Part shown: positions 37,501 to 62,991 of the stretch, one piece after another | Layout: every line of letters starts with the position of its first letter | How positions within the stretch are numbered: position 1 is the stretch's first letter | Assembly (NCBI GenBank): GCA_043228905.1 | Contig: JBHGNT010000015.1 | Span: 1,426,001 to 1,490,000, forward strand | Direction: 5' to 3' | From: Azolla caroliniana | Taxonomy: Eukaryota > Plantae > Polypodiophyta | Length of the DNA: 64,000 bases | Notes under the pieces: model-generated | Told to the model about the DNA's origin: nothing | What the model saw: the letters and a program-made list of their open reading frames with translations, nothing else | The model's database searches: none | Made by a program: the position numbers and the translations under genes

Positions 37501-37727
37501 CTGTTTCCTGTTCAACTAAGCTTTGCAAGTTCCGGAAACATTCGAAGACTTCGTTCTTCCGTTCGATGAGGTAGATCCATGTGTGCTGGCTATAGTCGTC
37601 GATGAAGGAGATGAAATATCGACTCCCGCCAAGATTAACGTTTTGTGTCGGTCCCCATACATCCGAATGGATTAGGTCGAGCTTGTTACAGCTCCAGTTT
37701 CATTCGGTGGGGAATGGTAGGCGGTGT

Positions 37728-37960
37728 TAGCAATGGGCGTGGTTCAGTTTCGGTTCGGTTCGGTTTCTTGGCCTTAAAACCAAACCAAACCATTTATTTA
37801 TATTAAAAACCAAACCAAATTGTTTAAATTTTATGAAGCCATTTAAACCAAACCGTTCATGAAAAATTTAGAACCAAACCAAATCGGTTTATCATAAATC
37901 AAAACCAAACCAAACCTATAAACCTTTAAACCTTCAAAACTTTTAAACCTTTAAACCTTT
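37728..37960. mobile_element. Single end of a hAT-like non-autonomous DNA transposon
   Basis: Begins TAGCAATGGGCG right after the copia codons for HRLPFP; dense CGGTT/AAACC subterminal repeats; no second end found. Confidence 0.65.
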
Positions 37961-39763
37961 CTGTCTCCGTGTACAACATCCGACCGTCCGATTGAGTGTT
38001 CATGTACCCACTCACATGGTTTTCTTCGACCATGAGCATCGATTGCAAGTCGAAGAAAGATGGTGGTTTCTCCCGGGTGCAAATCGCGGTCCGGATTGGC
38101 CCGTACTGTCAAGAGTTCGATGCCACGATGACCCACTTGCAGGTCATTTCGGGGTCGCGAAAACACTCGAGCTAATCTCTCGGGGGTATTGGTGGCCACA
38201 ACCATGGAAGTTGGTCAAAGAATACATAAAGAGTTGTGAGTTTTGTGCTCGCTCCAAAGCCATTCATCATCGGCCATATGGCTTACTACAGCCGCTTCCA
38301 TGTCCTTGTTGTCCTTGGGCCTCTATCTCTATGGACCTGATAACTGATCTACCCTTGGTCAATAGCTATGACTCGATGTTGGTCGTTGTCGATTGGTTTA
38401 TGAAGATGGCTCACTTCACTCCATGCTCCAAAACCATTTCCGGAGAAGGAATGGTGCATCTACTACTCAACAATGTGGTACGCTTGCATGGACTCCCCGA
38501 TGATGTCATCTCGGATCGCGGACCCCAGTTTGTCTCTCACTTCTGGCAGCGCCTGCTACAAACTTTAGGCATCTCTGTCAAATTTTCCTCTGCTTATCAC
38601 CCCCAAACTGACGGGCAAACGGAGCGTGTCAACCAAATCCTTGAGCAGTATCTTCGGTGCTCGGTTAGTTACCAACAAGATGATTGGGTCAACTTACTTT
38701 CGCTCGCGGAATTCGCCTACAATAATTCTCTCCATGCATCGACTAGCGTCATTCCCTTCTTTGCCAACTATGGTTTACATCCTCGCTTCAACATTTCCCT
38801 TCCTACCACTTCCGTGAACCCTTCGGTGGAGGATCGCGCCCGCATTTTGGAAGAACTACATCATGATTTATCCTTAGAGCTTAGTCTTGCTAATGAACGA
38901 TATAAGAAGCAGGCTGATCGCCATCGATCTTCCACTCCACACTTTGTCGTTGGAGACATGGTCTGGTTGTTACGTCGACACATCTCTACTACTCGTCCAT
39001 GTGCGAAACTTGATTACAAGAAGTTGGGACCATTCCGTATCATCGAGTGCATCAATCCCGTCACCTTCCGGCTCGCCCTTCCATCCCACTTCCGGATTCA
39101 CAATGTTTTTCATGTCTCCCTCCTCGAATCCCATTATGCTTCACAACTCCCAAGACGTCAGGCCCCACCACCACCACCTGTGCAATTGACGACAGGGGAG
39201 GAATACGAGGTCGACCAAATCCTTGACTCGCGTTGGCACCGTCGACACTTGCAATACCTCGTCCTATGGAGGGGTTACCCCATGTCTGAGGCCACGTGGG
39301 AACCATCGGCAAATTTACAAAATGCCCCAGAGGTCGTCCAAGATTTTCATCACCGATATCCCCACAAACCAGCGGCCGATTTGGGAAGGCGGCGTAGGAG
39401 GGGGGATAATGTCAAGATTCGAACTCTTGACACGACCATGTTATAATCTAGTATTATGAGTTAACCAAGATATCTAGTACATAGTTATGTATGTAATTAG
39501 TCCTTATTATTTTGCTAGCATCATGTGCATAGTTGCTCCCTTGTAGTATTTATACTTGGCACATGCATGCATACCTACATGCTCTATTGTAGATTCACAT
39601 GCGTGCAACAAGTATGCATGCCATGTAGTATAAATAGAGGAGTTCACCTTGAAGGAATTCAAGGTGAACAACACCAGTTATGGAGTCTTTCCTTTAATAC
39701 TATCTTCTTTCTTGTCCATTTGGTTATCTTCTTGCTTGTCTCTTGAGCTTATGATCTGTGACA
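37961..39763 (+). mobile_element. 3' part of Ty3/gypsy chromovirus 2 (Tcn1-like): integrase, chromodomain, PPT and 3' LTR (39410-39763)
   Basis: ORF 37992-39446 has HHCC, SMDL/SDRG/QTER, GPF and a group I chromodomain (YEVDQILD..YLVLWRGY..TWEP). PPT AGGAGGGGGGA; LTR TGTCA...TGACA abuts copia A gag. Confidence 0.9.
39410..39480 (-). promoter_or_regulatory. tRNA-like Pol III A-box/B-box cassette at the U3 end of the gypsy 2 LTR (putative)
   Basis: Minus strand reads TAGATATCTTGGTTAA...GGTC...GAGTTCGAATC; A-box start to B-box G is 52 nt. Confidence 0.5.
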
Positions 39764-42700
39764 CATACCTTTGCGCTAGACCACCGAGGCAGATTTGTAC
39801 CATCTCATCTTCTTCCACCGTCACGTTGATGAACCCGAGTGCGTCACAAATCTCCTTTATCTTGGTGGTGTAATCCGTAACCGACATGTCTCTTTGCCGG
39901 ATGTTGTTCAGCTCTTGCCGAAGTTGCAACTTACGAGTTGTGGTACTCGCGGCGAAAATATTCCTCAGATTTCTCCAGGCCTCCTTCGGCGTTTTTGCAT
40001 CCTTTATGTAGCCAAGCATCTGGTCGTGCACACAGAACGCGAGGCAGTACAATACTCGGCTCACTCCTTGCTCCCATACTGAGAAGTTCTCATGTGTCAG
40101 CTCCAACGCTACCTCGTTCATTCCTTCCACGAAGCTCCAATATCCATGCCCCAACAGGTACTGGTGCATCATGTATGACTAGGACGGGTAGTTGCTCTGA
40201 TCGAGCTTCTCTGTTGGAAGTGAAGTTGCCATTGTTTTGTCCATATCTTCTCTCTGTCTGTTGTTACCGGGTTCTAGGGTTCGTCTACGAAAGCAAGTGT
40301 CGACTACAAAGGTTCTCAACCCTTGCACTCACAAAACCATCTCAACCGGATAGCAACAGAGAATAAGAGGTTTAATGGAGAAGCTTAATACACAGAGAGT
40401 ATACGCGGGAGAGAGAGAGAGAGAGAGAGCAGAACATAAACTCAATTCACAATAACTCTAAAACTTTGTAAATACAATGTGTTATAACAACACTATTTAT
40501 ACAAAGTCCATAAAGGACTGACAGAAGTACTAACAGGTACTTCAATGCTCATACGAGTGACTGACACCAACTACGAGACAATGATTACCTAGTAGTCTAG
40601 GCTACTACTAGGCTTCCGGTTCCCGCTCGAATCCGGCTCTCCGATCCGTCTCCCCGATCCGGCCAATTGTTTCCGGATACCGATCCGGCTCATCCTTCCG
40701 GATGCTGATTCGGATCTGGTTAGGCTTGCTCGCTCAACATAGGGATATGTAGTTATGTGATCATGGTTGTCACCATCGTTGGTAAGGTGTGTCTTGATTA
40801 TTGCATTAGTTTGGTAACTTAGTAATTGACCTCGTAGTAGTTTTTGCTTTCATCAAGATGTTATTTGAATCCTTTGGTCTTATTTATTTAGTCTTTGTAT
40901 AATGAGTTGGGCTCGAGCGACCACATGTATCCCAACCTCAAAAGGTGTGACAAACATAGGTTGATGGAAACCTTTTTGTTCTTTCTTGGCCATGTAGATA
41001 CTATGTGGACATGAACATATCCCTCACACATGGCCTCTAGTGTTAATCGTGTCATAGGGTTTTGTACCCTTTGATTAGTTGATGTGGTAAGGTTGTTAGT
41101 CAAGGGGGTAATGTTCTTGTGTCATTGAACAATCATTGGGCACATTAGGATCTTGAAAATTGAAACACTTCACTTCATGTCCTCTTTGAAGTCTTATTAA
41201 CTCTTGTCTTGGGGTGCATTGGTCATGGCACAGTACATATACAATGGTGTATCAAGAGAATACCTCACCTTCTTGTCCTCCATTTGCCTAATCTTGTGAA
41301 TCATTTGAATAATAGGGTGGTGAGCTCCCTGACCTAAGACACTTCTTAGTGATCATTTTGAGGGTTGAAAAGCCTCATTACCACACTGATTAAGGGGTAT
41401 TAAGATGATGTGATGGTGAACCTTATCTATATAAATGTGTGTGTTGGGCATCGTTGATGTTTGTCTATTTGAGTATATAGTTAGTGTTGAGATATCAAGC
41501 TCAACTAGATTTGGTTAGCTAGTCAACACATGTAACTTAGTAGTTACCTAGATATAATCTAGTTAGTGTGTTGTCCTTAAAGCCTTAAATAGGATTTTGT
41601 ACTTGAGTGGGATACATTGTAGATCCTCCACTCCCATGATCATTTAATATAGGACTTACACCTTTGTACCTATATTGTACTCACACATGTGCACCTTTGC
41701 ACATGAGATGTATATAGACCTCATTGTCAGTATTTTTGTATTGGATGATGTTTTTTAATACAGTTAATCATCCCCCATCTTGTCTCGTTGTTCATAAGTG
41801 TTAACTTCCTCTCTCTCTTCCTCTCACACACATACACACACATATCACTTAATCTTCCGCTTAACTTAATCACATAATTAGGTACTAATTAACCCTTGCT
41901 TAATTACCTAATTATTAACAGTTAGACATAAATCCACTTTGTTCTAGTGGGCATCCAATGGGTCCCATGATACTAGCTTTTATGGTTGTAAAGATTTTTG
42001 AGGGTGATCCTCATCATGTTGTTGAGAGGCCTCTTTATGGGGTAGGTGAGATGTTCCAATTCTAGAGTTCATGTGGACTCCTAGAGTTGGCTTGTGGATG
42101 GTGCTTAATGAGATTATGCTCATGTGAGAATTATGGGTAAAGTTAGATTTGAGTTGTCTATCATTAAATATTTCTTTATCAAGGATTTCTAACTTCCATA
42201 GGCACGTCAAGTGAGAGTCATTCTATAGTTCACTTGTCAATCCCCCTTATTATTTCCCTATCGATGACCTCAACCTATTCAGCTTACCTTCGAAAATTTG
42301 AAGCAAATTCGATTAGGACCGATGCGACTACAAGTAACCAAAGTTTTTAAGAATCTATCAATACATTCCAAAATTCTTGAAAGTTGTTTGTCACGATATT
42401 CAAATGTATGTTTTCACTCAAGAAAATTTTGACTATATTGAGTTGACCCATGCGTCTTACTAAAAAACAGAACACCCCATGTGGATTATAAGGCATTCAA
42501 GTGGCACAATGGGTTGCTTTTTAACAAAGGTCTTCTAAGTATTACTAGAGAGGCATTTTTTTTAAAAAGTTAGGATGTATTGTCATAATGATTATATGGA
42601 TGGACATTATGGGACTCATAAGACAATAGAATTGTTTACTAGGATCATTTTGGTAACCCCATATTCGTAGTTTTGTCGAAGATTCCATTCATACATGTAA

Positions 42701-43399: not shown

Positions 43400-46300
43400 T
43401 TTGACCGATTCCCTTGTACTCTCATCATAGCCGATTTGTTGAGCATAGTCAACCGTAGCAGCAACTTTCCAGCACCATTCCTCATAGTCGATTTGATGTG
43501 TATATGCAAGAACAACACATATTTGTACACCATATCTCCGAAATTTTTATCGTCTACTCCTCCCAAACTTCAATTGAGCATTCAATGAACCCTATAGCAC
43601 CCAAAATCTGTAACAACAGAATGTCCATAATCAAAGTTAGTAGACATTGTTTCCCAAAATCACTAGAACAGTATACATCCAAATTATCTTATCTCCATCT
43701 TCCCTAAAAATGAGCATAGAGGTCCATATCCTTTTAAAATGCATTTTCTTCCTGAAAATGGCATCAGCATTGCCTGTGAAACTTTCATACTGACCACGTA
43801 ATGTATGAACAAGTAACAACCAGAATTCAACAATTATAACAACAACATCCTGAGTTACATGATCAAATATTGATGCGCATTGCGCTTTCCAAATTACCCA
43901 CATCAAAATAAATGAAATTGTCTTCCATATAATATCATCCCTAAATTGCAAACTGTCACTTATAAAGGGTTGAACCATTTGTATATGAGGAGGAACTATG
44001 TGAAAAGCTTCCACTATATCCTCCTTTTCATATAACAAGAGTTGATCCTCTAGAATACCCCACATAACCGCACCCCAAGTGACCACACAATTAGCATGTA
44101 TCAATATCAACAACCTTAATACTCTCTGCCATATTTGCATAATTTTAGGACAAGACCACAATACATGCTTAATTGATTCTACCATACATCCACAACCAAA
44201 ACCACATGACTTACTATCTAATTGCCGGAACCAAGCCCGAACTAGTAGTGCATAATGGATCAATAACCAGTGAAAAAGGACAATCTTCCTGGGAATCTGC
44301 ATACTCCATAACCATTTCCAATATTTAGATGCCTCCATTAAAGAGGCTCCATTCGCCAACCACACTTTCATAGCGGATGGCGGATGAAATTTCCTACTTA
44401 AGAGCAACTTTCGTCCCAACAACTCACAAAATATTGGATCTAAAATCCATGTTTTACCCGATTTACCAATCACTCTCACCGGATATTGCAATGTCGTTTG
44501 CCAAATTGATGATTCCACATCAGTCTGCCATAATCTTCCTTCCTCGGACACATCAAAATAGTAACAGACTCCTTGAGATGTTGTTCCTTTTACTCCTATA
44601 ATAACACCAACCGGAGTAAAATATCCAAACCAAACATGCTCAAAAGAAGGTGACCAATTAGAGAGAAAATTCCCTAAAGATGATTGAATTTCATCAAACA
44701 TAACTCTAAAACCTCTACACATGGTAGCATCTAGCTGTGAATTATTCAGATGAAAAACATAATTTTCCCAAGAGGCTACCGCGGTAGCTATACCATTATC
44801 CAACGTAGGCCACTATAATCGTGGTCTACTGCCGCAATAGTTCTTCATTCGAAGAGGGGCATCTACGAAAAAAAATAAATTTAACAGCTTCCCATGCTTT
44901 ACAAATACCAACCATAAAACCATGTATCGGACCATGTATCGGTCTCATCTTAAAATTTGACAAGAATGCCCATCTTAGAGATTGTTTCCAACCCCTCCCC
45001 CGGTAGATGGTTTAATATCAAACAATCGATTTAAAAGCAACTCTGACCATATACCTTGAGCCGGCAACATAGCCCTAACAACAAATTTTGCCAAAAGAGC
45101 CTTAAATTGGCTGTCTAGGTCCACGAACCCTAAACCACCATTAGAAAATTGCGTCGTAAGTGTCGACCAGGCTACCTTCACACGAGCATCATTATTACTT
45201 CGTCCTATCCAAATAAAGTTTCGAACCATTCGTTGAATCTGTAACAAACAGGATCTAGAGAACAAACATGTAGATGCAATATACCACATCGATGAAAGGA
45301 GAACTTGATTAGCTATCATTACTCTGCCTGCTAAAGACAACTTTGTAATGTCCCAAATCAACAATTTTTTCCTAAGTGATAACATTAGAGGAGCTAACAA
45401 TCGTTCCTTATTCACATTTATACCAACCTCACATCCTAAGTAACGAACTGAAACTCCTTCTTGAATCCAACGAAAAAACTCAGATGGTCTCCATGATGGC
45501 AATGGCGGCGTAGAAACCCAAAAACCCACTAATTTACACCAATTAACTTTTGCACCAGAGGCAACACAAAATGTTTCCAATGCAGCTTGTGCTTTATACA
45601 AATTACCTTCTTCAGCGCGCAAGTATAGTGTTGTATCATCTGCAAACTCCACATCTAGAATCATCTTGTTAGAGATCAGTACGACCAACCCTTGGATCCC
45701 AGCACCTGTTGAATTTAAAAATGCTGAAAATACCTCTGTAACAATAAGAAATAAAAAAGGGGCTAACAGACACCCTTGGCGAACAGATCGTGACATTTGA
45801 AACCTTCGTCCTCTACCGCCTGCTACTAAGATAGAACTATAAGCTAATCTATACAAAGCTGACACTACAATAATCCAAGCTTCTGGAAACCCTAATCTTC
45901 TCATCGCCTCTTCTAAAAAGTCCCAATTCACTCTATCATAGGCCTTTTCAAAATCTACCAATAAAATTACTAAGTCCTCTTTATTTGCCATAGCTAAGGC
46001 GGACAACTCCCAAAACAAAAAAATAATCAAATATACTCCTATCTAGCATGAAACCTGTCTGAGAAGTATGAATAATATCAGGCAATAAAGGTTGCAAACG
46101 CAATGCCAATATCTTAGCATACATTTTGTAAACTGTATTAAGTAATGTGATCGGTCGCCATGCCCTAATGTCCTCCGTGGCTCCATCCCCTTTAGGGATA
46201 AGACAAATCAGCCCCTCCTTCCATTCCTTTGGTAGGGCTCCCGAATCAAAAATTATCTGAAAAGCACTAGTTAAATCATCAGCTATAATGTCCCAATACT

Positions 46301-49165
46301 GTAAGAAAACATCTCTTATTAGTCCATCCTCTCTCGAGCAAACCTCGGAACCCAAAGATTTTTTAATGCTTGTAGAACCTCAAAAGAAGAAAAAGGGCAT
46401 AAAAGAGTTTGAACCATTCGATTTGTAACACATGGTTTTGTTGTACCAAAAACTATACCCCTCATTTCCATTACATTTTGACTCACCTCATCAGCAGACA
46501 AGAATTGTTCATAATATCACGATGCCAACTCTCGCATTTCATCTGGATCTGTTGCAAGAGTACCATCATTCCTCTTTAATGCACCCATCTGAAACTTCCG
46601 CGGTCTTGGAGTAACTACATCAAAATATAATTTGGACATTTTGTCCCCTTTTTTAGAACATTTTGTTGCAACTACAAAGTATTTAAAATCGGCCATTTTA
46701 GATTGCATAAAATAAATCTCGTCTCTTAACTTCCGTAAGTTGTTTTCAAGATAATTTGAATTGATATCTCTTTCTTGCAAATATTGAATCGAGGCCAACC
46801 CTCTTCTTGCATTTGCCAAACAAGAGATAAGAAAAAAATTCTTATCGTTAGCCTTGCCGAAAAGCAGTTTCTTAAGCTGAAATAATGCCACGAAAACCTT
46901 AGTTAACTTGTCAGGAGCAAAGACATTAGACCAAAGGAAAGCAACACTCTCTGCAATAGAATCATCCTTCAGAATCCACTTTGGAATCTTAGCATGATCA
47001 TGACATACAGCCACTGGCAATTTCAAAGTTAGCTTTACTAGTGCATGATCTGACAAGTTTTTACCCGGCACTATCCCTAGAGATCCACCTAACTCCCAAA
47101 AAAATTGATCCGCGTAAAACCTGGCAATCCTAGAGAGATTGGCATCCGCTACCCGCTTGTTCGATCGAGAAAATTGCAAAGACTCTACCCTTCTTGCAAA
47201 AGGCTGCATAAACCACAAATCCTGCAAGTTAAATTTAAAGGATAATTTTTCCCACTCAACCAACTCAGCACCTGAGATTGTAACTGTGCTCCCACCCATA
47301 CGATCTGAAGGGACTTCAAGCATATTAAAGTCCCCAACAATGCACCAATGATCCATTACAGGGAGATCATTCCACAGTTGGCACCAAAATTGTGCCCTTC
47401 CCCTTCCTGAATTCGGCGCATAAACATTCAAGAAGCCAACTTTTTTCTCTAATATCTTTAAGACTATAAATTGGGCACGACCACCCTGTAAAAAACCTTT
47501 GTCTACAATCAAAGAGGCCCATTTTTCAGAACATGCAATAGCAAGCCCCCCTTGCATTCTAGATGGCCCATAAGCCGGAATCCAATCATAAAACCACCTT
47601 ATGTTCAAGAATTTACGAATTTTAACCACCCTATTTTGTGATAAATGATGTTCTTGTATCAATAAAATGTCAAATTTACCCACATACTAGGATGAAAGTT
47701 CCTGATTAAACAAGCCTTTCACTTTATGAAATTTATCACCTCCTAACCCTTGTACATTCCAAGAGAGTAAAGTCAACGAATCCATATCACAAGGAGAGAG
47801 GTAACAACCTTTTATCCTTCAAGATATCACTTCGTTCCTTCTAAGCTGAAGAAACTGCCCTAGTAATTCTTTTTTCCATATTAGAATTTCTATTATCCTT
47901 GTATACTCTATTTTTGTTATTCCCTACAGCCTCAACTACACTATTAGATGTTGAAAATTTATACAGAATGGGAACATTTTCAGCATGCAACACCATCTTC
48001 TTTGAGTGATCCTCTACATTCTTTCTAACAATCTTAGCATAAGAAAATGGCACAATATCCTTAGATATAGAAATTTGCTGAATTTCTAGCTTAAAAGGAC
48101 ATACTTGGATGTTTGATTGATTCTCTAAATGTTGCACCAACTTTTGAACCTTTGAAGAATTACTCATAGGCACTACATCGTCACAAAGACCAACCTCCCT
48201 AACCATACTAACTTGTTGGGTATCAACAATAGGTAACGGCTCGTAATGTGCTTCCACAGCCTGCGAAACGGTATTCAAAAGTGGAAAATGTTGCAAAGGA
48301 TTATCATAAATTCTATCAGGCAATTCAATTTTTTTCTTTCCTCAAAACACCTTATTTCTATTCACGGTCTCCCATTGCAAAGAGTTTTGAACAAGACCTT
48401 CACCAAACGAGGTAGTATCTTGTTCCAATGGACAAGCTTTGGCAATATGACCTATTTCCCTACACCTATAACATTGATTCAGTAAACCATAATATACAAC
48501 TTTTTGAAGTTTTTGAAAGGCATTTCCATCTAGTTTGGGCAATCGAATCCATTGTGGCAATTTGTCCCCTTTCCTACATAATAATTTCACTGACGGAGCT
48601 CCTCCTTCCAAAACGTCATTCTTAGTACGTGACTGAAATGCCAAGACCTTACCAATAGATGCACCTAGTTTAGGCAATATCTTCCTCCATTCTTTCTCCA
48701 AATTTGAGAAAACCGTTGTACAAGTGAACATAGCGGTTGAATCCTCTTGTAATGCAAGTGTATTAAATCTGTGACGCCACGGATAAAAGACCGCCAGGGC
48801 ACCCTTAAGATCCGCCGAGCCCCATGACAAGAGACGAGAAACCGATTCTCCGTTCTCAAATTCCAATTGATAGCAACCCCGTCCTAATATTTGAATGTCA
48901 ATCATTTTATCCAAATCTGATTGGATGGCAACCTGTAACAAATGTCAAAGATCCCCTTTGCTCAGTTGGCTTCCCAAAATATGTACCACTATTGAGACGG
49001 CCTGAAGACGAATTACCTCTTGCATAACAATCACTTCATCCTCTAGTGCTAGGCTAATGTCTAAAGTCCCTTCGACTGAGATTGGGTTGAGAGCTAATGC
49101 ATTGGATCGCTCTCAGGGCGTTGATGTTGATGGTCCCTCCATGGCTAAGTAGATACTTCTCTCTC
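43400..49165 (-). mobile_element. L1-clade LINE, near full length, decayed; 3' end approximate
   Basis: ORF1 49142-47841 with CYRCREIGHIAKAC knuckle. ORF2 from ATG 47785 (MDSLTLLSWNVQGLG, QEHH, NVYAPN, GDFN, SDH endonuclease), RT (WRPITLLN, DFEKAYDRV, QGC, FADD) and zf-RVT (ESIKHVLWSCP) ending 43637; several stops and frameshifts. Confidence 0.92.
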
Positions 49166-50002: not shown

Positions 50003-53000
50003 TGTAAGGAATAGGCCCTTCTATTCACCTTCACCGCTCGGCCACAACCGAGTAAGCGCGAATCAATGGAGCAGAAAATAGGAACCACAAAGAGAAACAA
50101 AACGCGAGTACACAGGGATTAACGTGGAAAACCCTAGACGGGAAAAACCACGGGAGTACAAGACTCCAAACCAACACTATACAGAGAAGTATACAATGGC
50201 GAGCTGCAAGGCGACGACCTTGAGCTCGCTGTCCTCGCCACAGGCGGCGGAAATACACAGAGGCGTCTACCTCTTCCTCTCTCGCGCTCTATCTCTCTCT
50301 CTCTCTCTCTCACGGCTGCTTACACTTCACTCCTCTTGAGTGGAAAAACAGAAAAATGAGAAGCAACAACAAAACTGTTTGCCCTAAGTCATATTTATAC
50401 TTATATGACTTTGGGCTATTTACAACTGTAGCCTCAGGGGCCCATAGCGAACATATTCACGGATATGTCCCTGCATCCGGATCGCTCTCCGGGTACATTC
50501 GTCATCCGGTACCGAAACCGGGGTCTTCGTCATCCGGATCCGAAACCGAAACTGGGCTTGTCGGCATTCATCTCCGATATCCGACCATCCCATCCGAAAG
50601 GGACCGAAATCCCAACAAACTCCCCCTTCACTTCGGCATGGGATGTCTCTCCAATCCGATCCTCTTCCGGCATGCTTCCAGCTTGTCGGGTGTGAGCACC
50701 TTGGTCAGCATATCCGACCCGTTCTCGTCCGTGTGGACCTTCGTTAGCACGAACTCCTTGTCTTCTATCCTTTCCCGGATCCAGTGATATCTTCGCTGGA
50801 TGTGCTTCGTCCGGGAGTGATAGGCCACGTTCTTCGCAAGGTGGATTGCACTCTGACTGTCGCAGTAGAGTCGGTACTCCTCCTGTTGGATACCGAGCTC
50901 TCTAATGAAGTCCTTCATCCATATTATTTCCTTGCCGGCTTCAACAGCCGCCATGTACTCCGCCTCCGTGGTTGACAGCGCAACCGTCTTCTGCAGCCTC
51001 GACTGCCATGAAACAGCTCCCCCTGCATACGTCATCACATACCCTGATGTGGACCGGCTGGTATCTGCATCAGCTGACATATCCGAATCGGTAAAGCCGT
51101 CGAGTTCGGGCTTTCCGGAGCCGAATCGGAGGCACACGTTTGCCGTGCCCTTCAGGTATCGGAGTATCCACTTGGCCGCGTTCCAATGCTCTTTGCCGGG
51201 ATTGCTCATGTACCGGCTCACCACTCCGACTGCATATCCGATGTCCGGTCTCGTACACACCATGGCGTACATCAAGCTCCCGACGGCTGAGGCATACGGC
51301 ACTTTCATCATATCCTCCTTTTCAGCCTTTGTCTTGGGACTTTGCTTGCTGGACAGCTTGCAGTTTGTCGGGAGGGTCGATCCGACCGGTCTTGCTTCCG
51401 ACATGTTGAACCGGTGAAGCACCTTCGTCACGTACTTCTCCTGTGACAGCCACAACTGCTTCTTCTTCCGGTCCCGGATGATGTGCATCCCTAGTATTTG
51501 CCTCGCCGGACCCAGGTCCTTCATTGAGAAGGTTCGGTGAAGAGCCTTCTTCAGCATCCGTATCTTGACCTGGTTCCGTCCGACGATCAACATGTCGTCC
51601 ACGTACAGGAGGAGTATTAGAAAGTCTCCTCCTTCGAATTTCTTCACAAACACGCAGTGGTCGGACTGCGTTTTGAGGTACCCTTCGTCGGTCATGAAGG
51701 AGTCGAACTTCCGGTACCATTGCCGGGGAGCCTGCTTCAGTCCGTAAAGGCTCTTCTTCAGCCGGCATACCAGGTGCTCCTTCCCTTTCTTCTCGAATCC
51801 TTCCGGTTGCTGCATGTAGATCTCTTCTTCGAGGTCACCGTGAAGGAATGCCGTCTTCACGTCCATCTGTTCTACCTCGAGGTCCATGCTTGCCGCTATG
51901 CTCAGCACCGTCCGGATGGAGGTCATCTTCACTACCGGGGCAAATATCTCGTCGAAGTCGACGCCCTTCTTCTGCTGAAACCCCTTCACCACGATCCTGG
52001 CTTTGTATCTCGGGGGGTTTCCGGCATCTCCCGGTTTCAGCTTGAACACCCACTTGTTTCGAAGTGCCCGCTTTCCTTTCGGCAACTCCACAAGTTCATA
52101 TGTGTGGTTCTCATGTAGGGAATCCATCTCGTCCTGCATGGCACTCAACCACCTGCGGCTCTGGGTGTCATGCTTTGCTTCTTCAAAGCTCTCCGGCTCC
52201 CCCTCGTCGGTTAGCAGCACGTGCTCTGGTTCCGGAAATCTCCGGGGGGCCCTTCTCTCTCTTAGAGGATATCTCCGTTCCGGAGCTTCGGTAACCGGTT
52301 CTTCCGATTCTTCTTCATCCGAATCCATTTCGGGATCGGGGCCGGTTCCGGTATCATTTTCGTCTTCTTCGGCCGGTTCGGTTTCTTCACCGTCTTCGGC
52401 CGGATCCTCGAGTGCTAACCGGTCCCTTGCCGGTCGGGACTGCTCCTCGTAGAGTTTATCCTCACCGGTTGACTTGGAGCTCTTCATCTTCTTCTCCGAC
52501 TCCCAGTCGGCGAGTGTCTTGTCCTCCATGAAGATGATGTCTCGACTCCTGAATATCTTCTTGTCAACCGGGTCCCATACTCGGTAGCCGAACTCGTCGT
52601 CGCCGTATCCGAGGAATATGCATGGCCGGGTCTTTGGATCTAGCTTTCCTCTCCGGTCCTTTGCCACATGCACGTATGCGAGACACCCGAACACCTTCAG
52701 ATGCCGGTAGGATACTTCCCTACCGGTCCACACTCTCTGCGGCGTGTCTCCGCCCAAAGGTACTGAGGGTGATCTGTTTATCACGTATGTCGCCGTCGAC
52801 ATCGCCTCAGCCCAAAAACCCTTGGGTAATTCCGCATGCGCCAGCATACTCCGGACCCTCTCCATTATGGTCCGGTTCATCCTCTTGGCCAGCCCGTTCA
52901 GTTCCGGCGTCTTCGGCACAGTAAACTCGAGCCGGATTCCCTTCGAGCGACAGTACTCCTGGAACTGCCCCCGGTATTCCCCTCCGTTATCCGCTCGTAT

Positions 53001-55345
53001 CGCTTTCAGCTTCTTGCCGGATTCCCTTTCCACTCTCGCGTGGAGTTCTTTGAAGACGCACAACACTTGGTCCTTTGTCTTCAACGGTGCCGTCCACAGT
53101 CTTCGGCTGTGATCATCTATGAAAGTTACGAAGTACTGGGCTCCGCCATGTGACTTCGTTTCTACCTGGCACACGTCGGTGTGCACCAACTCCAATGGTG
53201 CGCTACGTCTCGTCGGTGGTCTTGAGTGGAAGGAGGTTCGGTTCTGCTTACCGGCCAGGCAGTCGGTGCACTTCTCCAGGTGCACATGCTTCACCGGAAT
53301 AAGGTTGTCTTCTGCAAGCCTCTTCATCCCCTTCTCACTCATGTGGCACAGTCTTTTGTGCCACAGCTCACCGGCAGTGTCGGCTGCCACATTCAGCTCT
53401 TCCGGACATAACCGGGCATTCATCAGGTACAGTGTGTTGACCTTCCGGGCCCGAGCCACTATCAAGCTCCCCTTGCTGAACTTCATGACACCGTTCCGGA
53501 TGCTACCCGTGTAGCCTTCATCATCTAGCCTCCCGGCCGAAATCAGGTTCAGTCGGACCTCCGGAACGTGTCGGACATCCTTCAGCAGCATTTTGCATCC
53601 GGTCGGGGTTGTCAACCACACGTCTCCTATGCCGGCAATCCGGCACGTACCTTCATTCCCCATCCGAACACAGCCATGCTCGCCGGCTGTGTAGGATGAG
53701 AAGTATCTTCTCTCTGGGGTCAGGTGGAACGATGCTCCGGAATCGACCACCCAGGTCGTCTCATCGCCGGCAATGTTTAGTTCACCTTCTTCGGTGATGA
53801 GCATGATCTCCTCTTCACTTGCCGCGAGTGCCGTCGTTCCTTTCCGGTCCTGTCCTCGCCAATCCGAACCATTCCGGTCCGTGGCTCCCCGGTATGCACC
53901 GTTTCTCTCCGGTGACTTCTTCGAATCGGTGTTGTCGGTTCCATTGTCTTTTCGGTAATGCCGACAATTCTTTCGGAAGTGCCCCGGCTTCCCACAGTGG
54001 AAGCATGTGGGCCTTCCTCTTGACTGCGACCGGGTCCCCGACTTCTCCCGTCTTTGCGGACTCCGGTTCCATTGTCTTCCCCGATCCGATTCGGTAAACA
54101 ACATCTTCGGGTCGGAGGCCGGTTCCTTATCTCTCCGACGCGCTTCTTCATTCAAAATACTTGTCTTTACCGTTTGTAAGGACAAGTTATCTTCGGTGCA
54201 GGAGGTGCTGAGAGTCACCACCAAGTTCTCCCAGCTTTCTGGCAATGTACACATCAGAATGATGGCTTGCATTGCATCCTCCAACGGGAACTTGATCGCC
54301 GCAAGCTGATTCACGAATCCCATGAACGTACTTACGTGTTCCACCATACTCTCGCCATCCCGGTACTTGAGATTCACTATCTTCCTCATCAGGGAGGTTC
54401 GGTTCAACGCATTCTTCCTCTCGTAGAGGCCCGACAGCTTCTTCCACATCTCATATGCGTTGGTGTCGTTCGCCACATGTTGTAGGACGCTTACATCGAC
54501 ATATTGTCGGATCGTCGCTACGGCTTTCCGGTTCAGGAGCTTCCACTCCGACTCAAGTACCCCCTTCGGTATTTCCGACCTGTCAATCGGTTCGTACAGG
54601 TCCCGAACAATCAGAAGATCCTCCATCTTGATCTTCCAGTCGGCGTAATTCTGTGCATTCAGCACCATCATCCCCGGCTGCCCGCTGCCGCCGCCTTCCA
54701 TTTTCTGCAACAGTCGCTCTGATACCAGTTTGTAAGGAATAGGCCCTTCTATTCACCTTCACCGCTCGGCCACAACCGAGTAAGCGCGAATCAATGGAGC
54801 AGAAAATAGGAACCACAAAGAGAAACAAAACGCGAGTACACAGGGATTAACGTGGAAAACCCTAGACGGGAAAAACCAAGGGAGTACAAGACTCCAAACC
54901 AACACTATACAGAGAAGTATACAATGGCGAGCTGCAAGGCGACGACCTTGAGCTCGCTGTCCTCGCCACAGGCGGCGGAAATACACAGAGGCGTCTACCT
55001 CTTCCTCTCTCGCGCTCTATCTCTCTCTCTCTCTCTCTCACGGCTGCTTACACTTCACTCCTCTTGAGTGGAAAAACAGAAAAATGAGAAGCAACAACAA
55101 AACTGTTTGCCCTAAGTCATATTTATACTTATATGACTTTGGGCTATTTACAACTGTAGCCTCAGGGGCCCATAGCGAACATATTCACGGATATGTCCCT
55201 GCATCCGGATCGCTCTCCGGGTACATTCGTCATCCGGTACCGAAACCGGGGTCTTCGTCATCCGGATCCGAAACCGAAACCGGGCTTGTCGGCATTCATC
55301 TCCGATATCCGACCATCCCATCCGAAAGGGACCGAAATCCCAACA
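50003..55345 (-). mobile_element. Ty1/copia element C (Tto1/Tork-like), full length and very young
   Basis: 615-bp LTRs at 50003-50617 and 54731-55345 with 2 substitutions seen; TSD TGAAG; tRNA-iMet PBS at 54727-54716; PPT at 50620-50627. Confidence 0.98.
50628..54701 (-). CDS. Uninterrupted gag-PR-IN-RT-RH polyprotein (1357 aa from the first ATG)
   Basis: CFHCGKPGHFRKNC, VDSGAS, WHKRLCH..CTDC, HTDV, ADNGGEY, YVDD, TDSD/EAEY/CDSQ motifs; the integrase catalytic Glu appears as Lys. Confidence 0.95.
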   Translation of the reverse strand: MEGGGSGQPGMMVLNAQNYADWKIKMEDLLIVRDLYEPIDRSEIPKGVLESEWKLLNRKAVATIRQYVDVSVLQHVANDTNAYEMWKKLSGLYERKNALNRTSLMRKIVNLKYRDGESMVEHVSTFMGFVNQLAAIKFPLEDAMQAIILMCTLPESWENLVVTLSTSCTEDNLSLQTVKTSILNEEARRRDKEPASDPKMLFTESDRGRQWNRSPQRREKSGTRSQSRGRPTCFHCGKPGHFRKNCRHYRKDNGTDNTDSKKSPERNGAYRGATDRNGSDWRGQDRKGTTALAASEEEIMLITEEGELNIAGDETTWVVDSGASFHLTPERRYFSSYTAGEHGCVRMGNEGTCRIAGIGDVWLTTPTGCKMLLKDVRHVPEVRLNLISAGRLDDEGYTGSIRNGVMKFSKGSLIVARARKVNTLYLMNARLCPEELNVAADTAGELWHKRLCHMSEKGMKRLAEDNLIPVKHVHLEKCTDCLAGKQNRTSFHSRPPTRRSAPLELVHTDVCQVETKSHGGAQYFVTFIDDHSRRLWTAPLKTKDQVLCVFKELHARVERESGKKLKAIRADNGGEYRGQFQEYCRSKGIRLEFTVPKTPELNGLAKRMNRTIMERVRSMLAHAELPKGFWAEAMSTATYVINRSPSVPLGGDTPQRVWTGREVSYRHLKVFGCLAYVHVAKDRRGKLDPKTRPCIFLGYGDDEFGYRVWDPVDKKIFRSRDIIFMEDKTLADWESEKKMKSSKSTGEDKLYEEQSRPARDRLALEDPAEDGEETEPAEEDENDTGTGPDPEMDSDEEESEEPVTEAPERRYPLRERRAPRRFPEPEHVLLTDEGEPESFEEAKHDTQSRRWLSAMQDEMDSLHENHTYELVELPKGKRALRNKWVFKLKPGDAGNPPRYKARIVVKGFQQKKGVDFDEIFAPVVKMTSIRTVLSIAASMDLEVEQMDVKTAFLHGDLEEEIYMQQPEGFEKKGKEHLVCRLKKSLYGLKQAPRQWYRKFDSFMTDEGYLKTQSDHCVFVKKFEGGDFLILLLYVDDMLIVGRNQVKIRMLKKALHRTFSMKDLGPARQILGMHIIRDRKKKQLWLSQEKYVTKVLHRFNMSEARPVGSTLPTNCKLSSKQSPKTKAEKEDMMKVPYASAVGSLMYAMVCTRPDIGYAVGVVSRYMSNPGKEHWNAAKWILRYLKGTANVCLRFGSGKPELDGFTDSDMSADADTSRSTSGYVMTYAGGAVSWQSRLQKTVALSTTEAEYMAAVEAGKEIIWMKDFIRELGIQQEEYRLYCDSQSAIHLAKNVAYHSRTKHIQRRYHWIRERIEDKEFVLTKVHTDENGSDMLTKVLTPDKLEACRKRIGLERHPMPK

Positions 55346-55817: not shown

Positions 55818-55874
<57 letters not shown>
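55818..55874. repeat. (TG)n microsatellite in the copia B LTR; continues as (GA)n after 60835
   Basis: Seen directly; gypsy 3 sits at the TG/GA junction. Confidence 0.95.
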
Positions 55875-55876
<2 letters not shown>

Positions 55877-58800
55877 TGTCAGGAATAGTACTAAAGCAGA
55901 GATGGAATTAGTACTAATAAGAGAACTACTATTAGTACTAAGAAGACGGGACTGTGTGAGATTCCCGAGAGAGGAAGTGAGAAGAGGAGAGAGATAGCGA
56001 GGATGAGAGAGAGAGAAAGATGATGACAGCAGCTAATATATTATGTGAAAAGATAAGTACAAAGCGGCTAAGAGGCTTAAGACTAGCATTGAACCAATTT
56101 GGTGCAACATAATGTCTAGTGCCTTCTTTTATAGTGTTGTCAGGAGTAATCCTGAAACTTCTAGAATGTTCTAGAGAAATCTGGAATATACATTACTTTC
56201 TTATAATAAAATATAAATGAAAATAATATCCTATGAATTACAATAGATGGTGTGATGGTTAAGAGCTCGACCCATATACCATAAAGTCATGGGTTCAAGT
56301 CTTGCCATATCATGACACTATCTCCCCCGTAAAGACGACGAGTGGAACGAGTTGGTGCTGATTGCGGACCGGGTTTGTCCAAATACTTTCGGTGGAAATC
56401 AGCAAGCAAATCCTGAGCATTGACAACATGCTCGACGGGTTCCCAAGTGCGTTCGCTCGGATTATAACCAAGCCAATCGACCAAATAATAAAGTTTGTTG
56501 CGAATAAGTTTGGAATCGAGGGTGGCAGTAACTTCATACTCCGAGCCGGCGTCCAACTCGAGCGGGGGCGGCGGTGGTGTAACACGATCGGGAATGGTGT
56601 TGGCTTTATAAGGTTCAAGAAGAGAACAATGGAAAACTGGATGTATCTGAAGCTGCGGAGGGAGATCAAGGCGGAATGTGACATCATTCACCTTACCCAT
56701 AATACGGAAAGGACCGAGTCGTCGATAATCCAACTTGTCGCACGGTCGAGTAGTCTTGATGTGACGACGTAAGAACCATACTCGATCTCCGATGGCAAAA
56801 GAGGAGGGAAGCCGATGACGATCCGTGTAAGTCTTCTGTGTCTGTTGAGCATGACGAAGATGAGTCGAGAGATTTGTCTGGATCTTGCGTAGTCTCTCCA
56901 ATTGATCCCCGGCACGAGGATTGGTAGGTAGTTCCGGGGTGTCGATCACCGACCAACGAGGATGAGAACCGGTATAAGCGTAGAATGGGGAGACTCGAAT
57001 CGAGGAGTGAACAGCATTATTATACGCAACTCTGCAAAGTGGAGAATCTCGGCCCAATCGTCCTACTGATAACTCAGGAAACACCGGAGATATTGCTCCA
57101 GCGTTTGGTTTGTTCGTTCCGCCTGCCCACCGGTCTGAGGATGGTAGCCGGAGGAGAGGTTGCAAGAGATCTTGAGCATCTTGAAGAGATGCTGCCAAAA
57201 TTTGGAGACAAATTGCGGTCCTCGGTCACTGATGATACTGTCTGGGAGGCCATGATGCCGAAATACCTCACGCATGACTAGGGCGGCGGTTTCCTCGCTA
57301 GTGATGGCCTTAGTACACGGAACGAAATGTGCCATCTTCGTATATCGATCGACAACGGTTAAGATAGCATCGAACCCCTGCGAGACCGGCAGATCTGTGA
57401 TAAAATCAAGACAAATAGACTGCCATGGCTTACTTGGAACGGTAAGGGTTCCAACAAGCCATATGGATGGTGTCGTGGCATCTTTGCTCAGCAGCAAGCA
57501 TCACAGGTCCAAACGTAGTCGTCAACAAAACGGCGCATGTGGGGCGACCAAAAAGATCGTTTCACTAGCTCCAACGTCTTAGTACTACCGAAATGTCCCA
57601 TTGTATGGGTGTCATGACAATGCTGGACGATTTGAAGGCGACAGGAGCAATCGGGGACATATACGCGCTTTTTAAAGAATAACAAACCATTATGATATTC
57701 GAATTGTCGGTAGTCAATACCTGGTTGTTGAGACTGAGAACAGGATGCCCGAGAAGTATCAATGTGCGCCAGGATGTCTTGACCAAAGCTATCTGTCTTC
57801 AAGTTTGCACGTATGTAATCGGTAATCCGTGAATCCATCGGGGTGTAAAAAATCTGTGTCGTGTGCAATCGTGTTGGTCCCAAGATTACTTGCTTTTGAT
57901 TATCAAATGTTGGATCACCAGGACGAGGTGCAAGATACGAACGTTGTGATAGTGCATCTGCTTTTCCTTGTTGCTTCCCCGGTCGATATGTGATTTTGAA
58001 GTCGAAATGCGTGAGGAATTGCGCCCACAGAGCTTGCCGTCGATTTAGTACGCGAGTGTTCTGGAAATAAGCAAGATTTTTATGATCACTAAAGACAATG
58101 ACCTGATGTGGAGAGCCCTCTAAGAAATGCCGCCATTGCACAAATGAATCCACGATGGCTAATAACTCCTTGTCATGTATTTCGTAGTTGATTTCCGCGA
58201 CATCGAATTTGCGCGAATGGAAAGCCACCGGATGCAACTCTTCTTTATCTCCTTGTTGAGAAAGGATGCTACCGAGAGCGAAATCTGAAGCGTCGGCCTC
58301 CATGATGAATGGTTTGTTGGTATCCACATGAGCTAGAATCGGTGCTGATGTAAAGGCTTTCTTAAGATGCCGAAAAGCCATATCTGCTTCAATGGACCAA
58401 AGATGAACCCGCTTGCCAAGTTCTCCTCTATGTAGGCTCGAAGGACTTCTAACTCGGTGGGTGACAAGTTGTAAATTGGTCCCCATGGTGGCTCAGTTCC
58501 TGGTTGTAAATCGATGGGACAGTCATAGGGACGGTGATGAGGAAGGGTACCGGCTTTTACCTTGTCAAATACATCGGCATAAGGATGATATTTTGCCAGA
58601 AGTTGTACTGAGGAGTCCTTCTTAATAGTGCTGGAAGGATGTAATGATATTGCAAATAGGAACATTGTCTCCTTGTGTCCTTCGCGTAATTGATGGAGTG
58701 AAATGGTCAAAATTCAATGAGTAGATTCTTGGGGTGGTCGATATCGGACTTCTCTTGTTCTCCAATCTATGGTTGGATTATGTAATTCAAACCAAGGTAA

Positions 58801-59144
58801 TCCTAGGACAATGGGATGCTCTGGACTACTAATTATATTAAATGATATTACACACACAAAACTACCTAGGACAACTTGAATGGGTTCTGATTCTTCTACA
58901 ATATTCCCGGAAGCAATGGGACGACCATCAATGACTACTATAGATGCGGGACAAGGAAGTTTTCTTAAGGATATTTGAGAAGCTTGGGCAAAATTTCGAT
59001 CCATGAAACAGGAATTAGCTTCGGAATCTAAAAGTGCTAGGAGGGGTACTGGAGGAGTACTTTTAGTACTAACAATGACTTGGGCTAGGAACACATTGCT
59101 AACTTGCTTAGAAGGAATGAAACCACTAATAGGCTGTACAGATC

Positions 59145-59199
59145 TAGGGCTGCTGTCCAACCAAACGGCTCCTATTTTGGCTAGACTCAATCGTTTAAC
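59145..59199 (-). promoter_or_regulatory. Putative -1 ribosomal frameshift signal (G UUA AAC plus pseudoknot) between gag and pol
   Basis: Slippery heptamer 59199-59193, 6-nt spacer, 11-bp stem GTCTAGCCAAA / TTTGGTTGGAC; pol opens in the -1 frame. Confidence 0.75.
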
Positions 59200-60378
59200 T
59201 CTTCATCTAATTGACTAAGGACTTCAAATTTATTTGAGATACTTGGGCTATTAGTACTATGAATACTATCTGACACCCTATTAGTACTATTAATACTATC
59301 AGACACTCCGAAGGGAATAATTGACTCGAGTTTAGTACAGGCGACGATTTGATTTACCTGTCTTCTTGGCCTATGGGGACAATTGATGGCGATATGCCCT
59401 GGTCCTCCGCAATAAAGACATAATCGATTGGCACGTCGTCGTTGCTTTTCTTCTTCCGATAACGGGTCGCGTCGACGCATGGTGTCGATCTCCATCGGTG
59501 TCGAAATATTGGCTTGAGGTACATCGCGTGCAAATGGTTTAGCCGTGACTGAGGTGTATGTGGGTTCCGGCTGAGAGCGTGGTATTTGTAACTGACGTTC
59601 CGAACGTCGTTCGAAAAGGCGGTTGTCGCATCGGACCGCTCGACTGATTGCCTCCGTAAGAGACTTTGGTTCCTCGGGGAAGGTTAAAAGCAAGTCTTTG
59701 ACATCGTTGCGCAAGCCATAGCGAAACTGCTCCATAAGAGCCTGATCATCCCAGGGGATATCTGAGGCGAGTAGACAGAAATCTGCCACGTAGGCCGAGG
59801 CTGGACGATCGCCTTGATGCAATCTTCAAATCTTGTTGATCGTCATCCTGATGCTGTCGGTATCTCCAAAGCAGGCTTTAAACTCACCAATAAAATCTTC
59901 AAAGTTATTAAGCAAGGGTGATTGTTTTTCTAGAAGTGGAGCAAACCATGCCAAGGTTGAGCCCGCTAAGTAACGTGCCTATTAGGCCGACTCGAGATGC
60001 ATCAGTGGGATATCGGGAAGGATGCATCTGGATGACTAAGCGTACCTGATTAAGGAATCCCCGGAATTGCGATCGTGTTCCATCAAATTTCACAGGAAGT
60101 CCAATCTTGGGCTCTTTATGAAATCCTTGGGGACTTGATCCTTGTTGTTGCAACGCTGCTTCGAGTTGTTGTACCCGTAACGCTAACTCCCCATGTTGTT
60201 GTTGCGTTTGTTGTTTTTCGAGAGCGATTTGTTGCAGATCCCCTATCAACCGTTGGTTTTCTTGTTCCAGGGCAACAAACTTTTCTTTTAGGCACTGTAA
60301 CTCAGAGAAAATGGATTGATATTCTTGGGCACTAACAGTAGCCATAGTATAGGGAAAAGGGTAGGAGGAAAGGAAGAA

Positions 60379-60390
60379 AAATTGGTTCAA
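60379..60390 (-). promoter_or_regulatory. Self-priming PBS (non-tRNA) of gypsy 3
   Basis: TTGAACCAATTT, 2 nt after the 5' LTR, is complementary to AAATTGGTTCAA (60618-60607), which starts 33 nt from the first base of a TATAAAA box (60651-60645). Confidence 0.8.
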
Positions 60391-60758
60391 ACTGTCAGGA
60401 ATAGTACTAAAGCAGAGATGGAATTAGTACTAATAAGAGAACTACTATTAGTACTAAGAAGACGGGACTGTGTGAGATTCCCGAGAGAGGAAGTGAGAAG
60501 AGGAGAGAGAGATAGTGAGGATGAGAGAGAGAGAAAGATGATGGCAGCAACTAATATATTATGTGAAAAGATAAGTACAAAGCGGCTAAGAGGCTTAAGA
60601 CTGGCATTGAACCAATTTGGTTCAACATAATGTCTAGTGCCTTCTTTTATAGTGTTGTCAGGAGTAATCCTGAAACTTCTAGAATGTTCCAGAGAAATCT
60701 GGAATATACATTACTTTCTTATAATAAAACATAAATGAAAATAATATCCTATGAATTA

Positions 60759-60835
60759 CAATAGATGGTGTGATGGTTAAGAGCTCGACCCATATACCAT
60801 AAGGTCATGGGTTCGAGTCTTGCCATATCGTGACA
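60759..60835 (+). promoter_or_regulatory. tRNA-like Pol III A-box/B-box cassette at the U3 end of the gypsy 3 LTR (second copy 56241-56317)
   Basis: TGGTGTGATGGTTAA (60766) ... GGTC ... GGGTTCGAGTC (GTTC at 60811); the 45-nt spacing equals tRNA positions 8 to 53. Confidence 0.65.
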
Positions 60836-62991
60836 GTGAGAGAGAGAGAGACAAGTATACAGAAAACTATAAAATTGTATTAACAAGATAATAAAACAAC
60901 CAACCAACTACAAAGAAGAGGAGAAGGTGCTTATGTAGTCACATTCTCTCTATGTTCTCTAACTACAACCACCTCTTGGGAAGGAGGTGGAGACTTAACT
61001 ACCTAGTAACTATGTGTCATAGGACGTACCTTCTATGACACATTAGTTATGATACAAAGTGGTGGGATGTTCATACACTTGGCCATTCCTAAGATGTCTT
61101 CACACACTAGGGAAGTTGAGTTTGATTCTCAACAAGCCCCTTCAAACACAACTTCCGGTCGCCGAAGAGTTGGCTTGGAGGTTGGTGTCCGGGTCGGCTT
61201 CGGTAATCGGCTCCGGTTTTGGCTATGGATGGCCGGCTCACTCTTGTGCTCCGTTCAACTTCATGTTGGGCCGCGGCTCCTTACTCCCCCTCAAGCTCGG
61301 TTGGTTGGTGGTCGAGACACCTAGGCTTGTCGAGAACTGCCGCAACTTGTCCGTTACCAGGGCCTTCGTGAAGATGTCGACCATTTGCAGGTTGGTGTTG
61401 ATATGTTGCAGGTCAACATCTCTGGCCAGGACACGTTCTTGGATGAAATGATAGTGTACCTTGATGTGTTTAGTCTAAGCATGGAAAATCGGGTTCCGAA
61501 CTAGGTGAATACTGTGCATGTTGTCAGAGTATAAGAGGATTGGGTCTTTGATGGAAATGTCCAAATCCTTGAGAATCCTCTTGAGCCATATGGCTTCGCA
61601 TGTTGCCACTGTTGTGCCCTTGTATTCCGCCTCTGTGCTCCACAGTGCGATTGTCAGCTACTTTTTGTTGCTCCAAGTGATAGCTCCGCTATCGAGGGAG
61701 AAGACGGAATTATCCCGATGTCGATCGTTTGTCGGCCTTGTAGCTAACCCAATCAGCATCTATGTACCCTTCGAGACAAATCTATGTAGCTAACTTGTAG
61801 AGAATGTCATAGTCCATCGTTCCACTCACATATCGTAACACTCGCTTAGCACAATCTAAATGTGTATCACATGGAGTTCACATGAATTGGCTAAGGAGGC
61901 CAACCGGATAGCTGAGGTCAAGTCGAGTGATAGTGAGGTAGATAAGACTTCTGACAAGTTGTCGATAGTATGTCAGCTCACAAAGTTGGCATCTAGTTTG
62001 AGGTTTCGGTCAAGAGGGGAAGAGATAGGGTTACACTCTGTCATCCCAAACTTGAAAAGCAAATTGAGGATATAGTGTCGTTGGGAGATCATGATGCCAT
62101 ATGGAGTCCGAATTACTTCTATCCCTAAAAAGTAATGAAGCTCCCTTATATCTTTCATTTCGAATTGGCCAGATAGAAGCTTCTTGATATGATTGATATC
62201 TACTATGTGCTCTCCTCCAATGACCAAGTCGTCCACATCTATTATGATAAACAATTGTCCTCTGGAGTCGCTCCGGAAGAACAGGGAATTGTCGGACTTG
62301 GACATTCTGAAGCCAATTTGGTGAAGATACTAAGTTATCTTTGAACGCCATGCTTTAGGTGCTTGCTTGAGGCCGTGGAGAGGCTTTTTAATTCGGCATA
62401 CGGCAATCGGATGCATAATCGACTTGAAGTCAGGAGGTTGTACCATCTATACCTCCTCATCTAATTTGCCTAGAAGAAAGATGTTCTTTACGTCCATTTG
62501 GTGGAGGTGCCACCCTTTTTCTTTTACAAGCGCGATCACAGTTTGGATGGCAGTCATCTTTGCCATTGGGCAAAGGTCTATTCACAATTGACCCCGTGTG
62601 TTTGCGCATACCCTTTTGGCACTAGTCGGGCCTTATACCGATTGACGGTGTCGTCGGTGTTGTGTTTCACCTTGTATATCTACAAGCATCCAATTGTTTT
62701 ATGGTAGGGTGAAGAGGGGACAAGATCCCATGTCTCGTTCTTGGAGAGTGCTTGCATCCCCTCATTCTTCAATTCGACCCATCATGGGTCCTTAGCGGCT
62801 TCGGAAAAGTTTTCCGGTTCTTTAACTAACGCCACCTTCATCATAAAGGCATAATGATATGCTATGTAGTCATTGTAGCCGAACTGGCTTACTACATTCT
62901 TTTCACAGGTGGAGCGTCGGAGTTTCTCATTTGCTATTGTGACTACTTTCTTGGCTCCGGGTGTCTTCATGATAGGTAACACCTAGTCCAC

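Follow-up and report, generated by a model that had tools for sequence, protein, structure and literature searches.

An antisense tRNA-like A/B-box cassette at the U3 tip of Tcn1-type chromoviruses in Azolla caroliniana

Introduction

Why would a protein-coding LTR retrotransposon carry, near the outer edge of both LTRs and pointing against its own direction of transcription, what looks like the internal promoter of a tRNA gene? "Not a few LTRs" in Repbase are reported to contain part of a tRNA; in the accessible text of the source only TRIMs are analysed, and autonomous elements are argued to depend on Pol II (PMC10886601). The question is raised here by a gypsy element (gypsy 3) in a 64-kb stretch of Azolla caroliniana DNA, hereafter the window. 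An earlier note had claimed that both LTRs of this element hold an A-box, a variable-loop motif and a B-box at tRNA spacing, and the following features were indeed found there.

60766-60776, + strand: A-box-like element TGGTGTGATGG (tRNA positions 8-19) in the U3 tip of the 5′ LTR, antisense to the element
60802-60806, + strand: variable-loop-like AGGTC, conserved between families
60810-60819, + strand: B-box GGTTCGAGTC (tRNA positions 52-61), 16 nt inside the LTR end
56248-56301, + strand: second copy of the cassette, in the 3′ LTR, with AAGTC and GGTTCAAGTC, facing the polypurine tract (PPT) and chromodomain

The cassette and its carrier element

The element lies on the - strand and the boxes on the + strand, so the cassette is antisense: as had been described, it points out of the 5′ LTR and, from the 3′ LTR, into the PPT and chromodomain. 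The distance from T8 to G53 is the claimed 45 nt, which is also that of host tRNA-Arg and tRNA-Lys genes, and the arrangement is that of a type 2 Pol III internal promoter, in which A-box and B-box lie 30-60 bp apart. When the matrix is derived solely from 18 host tRNA genes, the 3′ LTR cassette scores 22.8 bits, against a maximum of 7.9 bits for shuffled tips (n = 200 shuffles). The arms were correctly said not to pair, with 3 of 7 acceptor pairs and 1 of 5 anticodon pairs present. ARAGORN reported no tRNA in the 64-kb window and Rfam gave no tRNA match at E ≤ 10 between 55000 and 61500; together with the unpaired stems, which leave no cloverleaf, these searches rule out a functional tRNA gene. 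No single source tRNA stood out, the best matches being spread across Ile, Arg, Thr, Asn, His, and Lys within a partial host set. No oligo-T terminator was found near the cassette, the first T4 lying at 397 nt for the 5′ LTR and 1,367 nt for the 3′ LTR. The 5′ copy in the window has G at A-box position 14, which is occupied by A in 24 of 30 clade members. In the window's family the spacer repeats the B-box arm in inverted orientation, and as a result the whole cassette folds as a single long hairpin.

The carrier is 4.96 kb long and is laid out as follows.

60393-60835, - strand: 5′ LTR, 443 bp
55877-56317, - strand: 3′ LTR, 441 bp, 97.3% identical to the 5′ LTR
55872-55876 and 60836-60840: 5-bp target duplication
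60645-60651, - strand: TATA box, the element's own predicted Pol II promoter (putative function)
60607-60618, - strand: predicted 12-nt self-primer, complementary to the primer binding site (PBS), 33 nt after the TATA start
60379-60390, - strand: PBS complementary to the element's own LTR (predicted Tf1-type self-priming)
56318-56328, - strand: polypurine tract
56287-60423, - strand: broken gag-pol with gag/CCHC, protease, RNase H, integrase, SH3, and chromodomain

The chromodomain matches Pfam Chromo at E = 1.6e-10, and its translation holds the Y, W, and Y residues of an aromatic cage. The PBS is complementary to 12 nt of the LTR and not to a tRNA. Inspection of 84 3′ LTRs with their upstream regions yielded 38 LTR pairs, 28 of which have a complementary stretch of 11-13 nt between PBS and LTR, where changes in one partner are matched by changes in the other; a self-priming PBS is the pattern reported for the Tcn1 clade (PMC6317226). 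An integrase tree made by a quick method placed the families with fungal and metagenome rows (P0103, P0108), apart from the window's tRNA-primed gypsy element and three Tekay-like rows; the tree held no named Tcn1 reference, and the Selaginella element SM-Tcn1 was compared by eye only. The proposed Tcn1-type assignment is borne out by the aromatic-cage chromodomain, the self-priming PBS, and the grouping with fungal elements. By eye, some 11-12 nt located past the TATA box in the SM-Tcn1 LTR appear able to pair with the sequence after the 5′ LTR, a self-priming signature that its own paper, in its accessible parts, did not find (PMC2864245). Since the window's element has its own predicted TATA box and is predicted to prime itself, the cassette is needed neither for promoting genomic RNA nor as a primer site; it is neither a tRNA nor a genomic-RNA promoter.

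A second Tcn1-type family in the window, a distant relative of the first, is likewise cassette-bearing.

39410-39763, + strand: 3′ LTR of the second family
39416-39476, - strand: diverged cassette at the tip of this 3′ LTR
39416-39425, - strand: its B-box
39465-39476, - strand: its A-box-like element, with spacing 6 nt longer

The 3′ part of this second family is enclosed in a copia element (26910-40739, LTRs 88% identical), together with a nested chromovirus (28247-35290) that is tRNA-iMet-primed, has identical LTRs, and carries no cassette. An intact-looking copia at 50003-55345, with an ORF of 1,374 aa and LTRs 99.7% identical, also has no cassette, and LINE-like ORF fragments (endonuclease, RT, zf-RVT) occupy 43637-48944 on the - strand.

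Spread through the genome and among other elements

The genome searched comprises 523 Mb in about 22 large contigs. A pattern combining A-box, variable loop, and B-box gave 3,170 matches, against 1 for a reversed control pattern; a free-standing SINE with this head was also considered, and in the first 100 of these matches the matched text looks like that of LTR families. An LTR search returned 2,943 candidates, of which 40 were scored. To avoid circularity, LTR tips were picked by a PPT pattern rather than by the cassette; this pattern had 3,175 matches genome-wide against 40 for its control, and most of the first 100, all on contig C1, provided 93 junctions (2 of them from the window). Among the matches listed, 61 of 80 tips with integrase upstream score at least 15 bits in the antisense direction, compared with 0 of 80 on the sense strand and 1 of 80 in the following 130 nt, and the layout recurs in all 10 integrase-linked clusters, in some only in degraded form. 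Host tRNA-Lys(TTT), tRNA-Ile(TAT), and tRNA-Arg(TCT) genes form tandem clusters (L184-L192, L201-L203, L305, L313, L315) with many variant copies and few T-run terminators nearby.

The cassette is also found in an unrelated LTR family with a tRNA-type PBS (L411:3920-3217, - strand, and L412; G000 C2, C5), a 2.8-kb element that encodes gag and protease only and whose ORFs gave no match in Pfam. Its PBS is putatively that for tRNA-Trp. An antisense cassette lies near the U3 tip (24.3 and 15.7 bits in the two copies) and a second, in sense orientation, about 360-410 nt into the LTR (20.0 and 22.0 bits), so that the two bracket the TATA box.

Rearranged copies occur as well. An AT-rich foldback-like element (L400, L402-L410) contains tandem arrays of 2-7 cassette units, each starting with LTR nt 1-101, that is, the cassette alone; the last unit may extend into an R/U5 remnant without TATA box and self-primer. 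The boxes in these arrays are decaying, with GTTCRA kept in 21 of 38 units. At L401:970-1650, inside a copia, a Tcn1 LTR and PBS are followed by an inverted copy of the element's own tip, resulting in two outward-facing cassettes. Elsewhere (L327, L161-L163), three tandem 354-bp repeats comprise chromodomain, PPT, and LTR tip, and two of these are cut just upstream of the B-box.

Beyond this genome, 93 metagenome and viral loci were collected as relatives. In 42 of them the PPT could be located and was followed by at least 100 nt of tip; no tip among these 42 reaches 15 bits, and in the Selaginella SM-Tcn1 LTR (PMC2864245, supplement S3, as far as accessible) the cassette is absent by eye. The suggestion that this is a Tcn1-wide feature is therefore not upheld. 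One locus whose PPT was missed by the rule (L061) does have the cassette, its integrase being 87% identical to that of a family of this genome; close relatives of its branch (L062, L063, L096) are without it, L062 despite 67% integrase identity to the window's second family. Two outside loci with no located PPT score 16.8 and 17.7 bits in 600-nt scans, away from the LTR tip and against a background of 2/308. The viral contigs yielded 0 loci when searched with a single protein and 13 with an alignment; a loose DNA pattern gave 120 loci there, none with an integrase match. In a Tekay-like element on viral contigs (L147:4750-5100), the 3′ LTR holds two tRNA-like cassettes, both in sense orientation (33.8 and 25.1 bits). 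A single clade of all cassette-bearing rows was rejected on the quick tree (p-AU 0.0007). These results suggest that the cassette was either gained within this host, and then exchanged among lineages or captured repeatedly, or gained long ago and lost several times.

Conservation and decay of the boxes

Outside the window's own clade, integrase identity between clusters is 44-78% where measured, and the LTR bodies of different clusters mostly share only short alignable patches. Mean pairwise identity across 9 families is 0.75 in the D-loop, 0.79 in the variable loop, and 0.94 in the B core, as opposed to 0.25-0.33 in the upstream DNA and in the spacer, which is near random. Because the D-loop GG and the B core served as alignment anchors and the variable loop did not, the variable loop provides the unbiased figure. 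Among 14 representatives, hand-picked as best copies and related to each other, T8-R9 is kept in 13, Y11 in 11, A14 in 10, G10 in only 7, and C56 in all 14; position 57 is only A or G, and position 59 takes all four bases, within the B-box consensus. The distance from G18 to G53 is 35-36 nt in 11 representatives and 42 nt in the other 3. The B-box lies anywhere between 6 and 53 nt from the LTR end, and the cassette is therefore no attachment site. With box positions kept, spacing held, and spacer sequence free, a two-lobed DNA-binding factor is a better fit than pairing with a single tRNA.

Within the window's clade the contrast depends on the comparison. Across 30 LTR pairs, inherited variants and post-insertion mismatches number 1 (G57A) and 12 in the B-box, compared with 26 and 27 in its flanks (Fisher p = 0.0098); relative to all of U3, the difference is not significant (1 of 10 versus 47 of 130 variable positions, p = 0.16). 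The B-box of this clade lies in a hairpin arm, which could itself account for its conservation there; over 21 tips, a hairpin with z ≤ -3 on some strand is seen in 6, and most families are without one. The idea that the boxes are more conserved than their neighbors thus stands across the 9 families and, inside the clade, against the flanks, not against U3 as a whole. Such conservation is what a selected TFIIIC site would predict, and we regard the cassette as real and probably under selection.

After insertion, C-to-T changes are found in 326 copies at the B-box CpG and in 328 at a control CpG in the spacer (3,052 intact), and this equality indicates that most copies are not protected from methylation. 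CpG methylation excludes TFIIIC (PMC11346459), and with most copies looking methylated a TFIIIC site would serve the few active ones. In paired LTRs 2-7 kb apart, among the matches listed, C56T, G57A, and the control CpG change are shared by 3, 3, and 3 pairs, where chance predicts 2-3, and both G57A pairs examined belong to another family. T54C occurs in three copies from two related clusters, and this sharing makes it seem that an element with a broken B-box has replicated.

Proposed function and alternatives

On the strength of sequence comparison, the reading we favor, with a probability of roughly 0.52, is that this backward tRNA-derived A/B pair, conserved across many families, binds TFIIIC as DNA and so keeps the U3 edge open. 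A tRNA gene or the head of a tRNA-derived SINE may have been inserted antisense in U3, and would then have passed between lineages sharing the genome, through exchange of U3 segments or by being captured more than once. TFIIIC would occupy the few copies that are unmethylated and replicating; the outer LTR edge would be kept open and the element's TATA promoter, 115 bp further in, shielded. Such a barrier, or clearing of nucleosomes, could benefit an element whose chromodomain should lead it into heterochromatin, and any Pol III transcript would be a by-product. In fission yeast, TFIIIC at B-boxes constitutes a boundary pathway (10.1101/630970), and TFIIIC is reported to relieve nucleosome repression, with an optimal box spacing of 30-60 bp (PMC11346459). 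More tentatively, and with the odds against it, several autonomous LTR lineages in one plant may have repeatedly gained and kept a portable TFIIIC barrier, giving thousands of mobile boundary elements, among them an unrelated family that brackets its TATA box with two outward-facing cassettes.

Alternatively, genomic RNA could be the useful strand, with U3 after the PPT likely annealing to the D-loop and the variable-loop/T-arm of a host tRNA and so serving packaging, dimerisation, or strand transfer, as in Ty3. Over tRNA positions 44-62, each of the 14 representatives could form, in register, 14-18 of the 19 pairs with host tRNA-Arg, -Ile, or -Lys, in runs of 9-17 nt; the conserved islands are those used by the Ty3 U3 (PMC5371799), and the tRNA-Lys3-like sequence at the HIV-1 U3-R is a reported precedent (cited in PMC6468702). 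However, an element predicted to prime itself needs no primer tRNA. Conservation tracks the loose consensus of the boxes and not an unbroken stretch matching one tRNA, the length of the spacer is held without complementarity, and in the window's clade the hairpin would hide the site. We therefore consider tRNA annealing improbable.

It is also unlikely, in our judgment, that the cassette is a neutral relic of an old tRNA or SINE insertion, kept only through conserved U3 tips or hairpins that serve reverse transcription or integration. Post-insertion decay equal to that of the control CpG is what such a relic should display, and the hairpins in 6 of 21 tips, the loss of the cassette in L062, the existence of T54C copies, and the decay of units captured in arrays (GTTCRA in 21 of 38) all fit. 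On the other hand, a CpG-bearing, G-rich motif has persisted while spacer identity dropped to 0.25-0.31, the variable distance to the LTR end (6-53 nt) excludes an attachment site, and the hairpin is absent from most families. Cassette bearers are not one clade (p-AU 0.0007) and include an unrelated LTR lineage, so that a relic would require repeated retention.

A working Pol III promoter is a further, and similarly doubtful, explanation: antisense RNA from the 3′ LTR might damp expression or feed small-RNA silencing as a form of copy-number control. Its orientation fits, the upstream DNA is AT-rich and in the clade always has CAA 5-7 nt ahead of T8, and 29 of 58 clade copies have a T4 run at most 36 nt past the LTR edge. 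However, the terminator is not conserved, with T4 inside the tip in only 4 of the 14 representatives and the first T4 of the window's family 1,367 nt away at the 3′ LTR. In plant tRNA genes, moreover, CAA is reported at -1 to -10 (PMC11700998), farther from the A-box than it lies here. An antisense regulator, as the earlier note had envisaged, is not supported, for want of a conserved terminator.

Least likely is the proposed integration aid, in which TFIIIB/TFIIIC bound at the tips would draw in integrases, much as Ty3 is drawn to tRNA genes. In its favor, three different breaks (L214, L231, and the foldback arrays) lie at LTR nt 101-103, some 30 nt upstream of T8. However, only 2 of 110 tip-anchored LTR copies end there, just upstream of the A-box, one of them via an internal deletion, the array junction shows microhomology, and 0 of 50 outer flanks have a cassette within 100 bp, so that neither flanks nor break points hint at targeting.

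If the cassette does recruit TFIIIC, the selection of a reversed A/B pair in autonomous chromoviruses would suggest that such boxes have a second role, in chromatin control. It would be a direct test case for TFIIIC boundaries in plants, and it bears on how elements that target heterochromatin remain transcribable. Being present in more than 3,000 copies, the cassette could also deplete TFIIIC by titration or organize chromatin in this genome.

Comparison with known systems

Fission yeast IR elements and ETC sites resemble the TFIIIC-binding reading in that the B-box acts as DNA, possibly without a useful transcript (10.1101/630970, PMC11346459). They differ in being host loci with several B-boxes, whereas here a single A/B pair is mobile and present in thousands of copies. 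The bipartite PBS of Ty3 (PMC5371799) and the HIV-1 U3-R sequence also place in U3 a complementarity to the D and T arms of a tRNA. Those elements are described as tRNA-primed and match one primer tRNA, while the element here is predicted to be self-priming and matches no single tRNA; in a Ty3-type arrangement one and the same tRNA pairs with U3 and, through its 3′ end, with the 5′ PBS, and here the PBS pairs with the element's own LTR. With the Tcn1 clade the carriers share a Group I chromodomain with aromatic cage, a self-priming PBS, and a fungal grouping (PMC2864245, PMC6317226), and the RNase H region is colinear with that of SM-Tcn1 by eye (PMC2864245); the accessible text of these Tcn1 descriptions mentions no cassette (PMC2864245, PMC6317226). 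Cassandra TRIMs also have a Pol III promoter in a plant LTR, but theirs is a 5S-derived type 1 promoter that makes genomic RNA in a non-autonomous element (per PMC10886601).

The closest likeness is to Helenus/TRIMp3, where tRNA-derived A and B boxes occur in both LTRs with the cloverleaf mostly lost (PMC10886601), and where the consensus LTRs keep GGTC before box B, as here (PMC10886601 supplement). In the Helenus consensus LTRs examined, however, the boxes are in sense orientation, in short, non-autonomous, tRNA-primed elements, and are proposed to promote genomic RNA (PMC10886601). The cassette described here is antisense and occupies the U3 tip of 5-kb chromoviruses that encode proteins, are predicted to be self-priming, and have a TATA box of their own. 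The 4.96-kb gag-pol element lies well outside the TRIM size of under about 1.3 kb, and tips carry the boxes antisense in 61 of 80 cases and sense in 0 of 80, among the matches listed. In the accessible literature searched, Repbase entries and subscription journals aside, no A/B cassette in antisense orientation was described for Tcn1 or for any other autonomous LTR element. As far as these sources extend, tRNA-derived boxes in LTRs are already known from Helenus, and what is new is an antisense cassette in autonomous chromoviruses.
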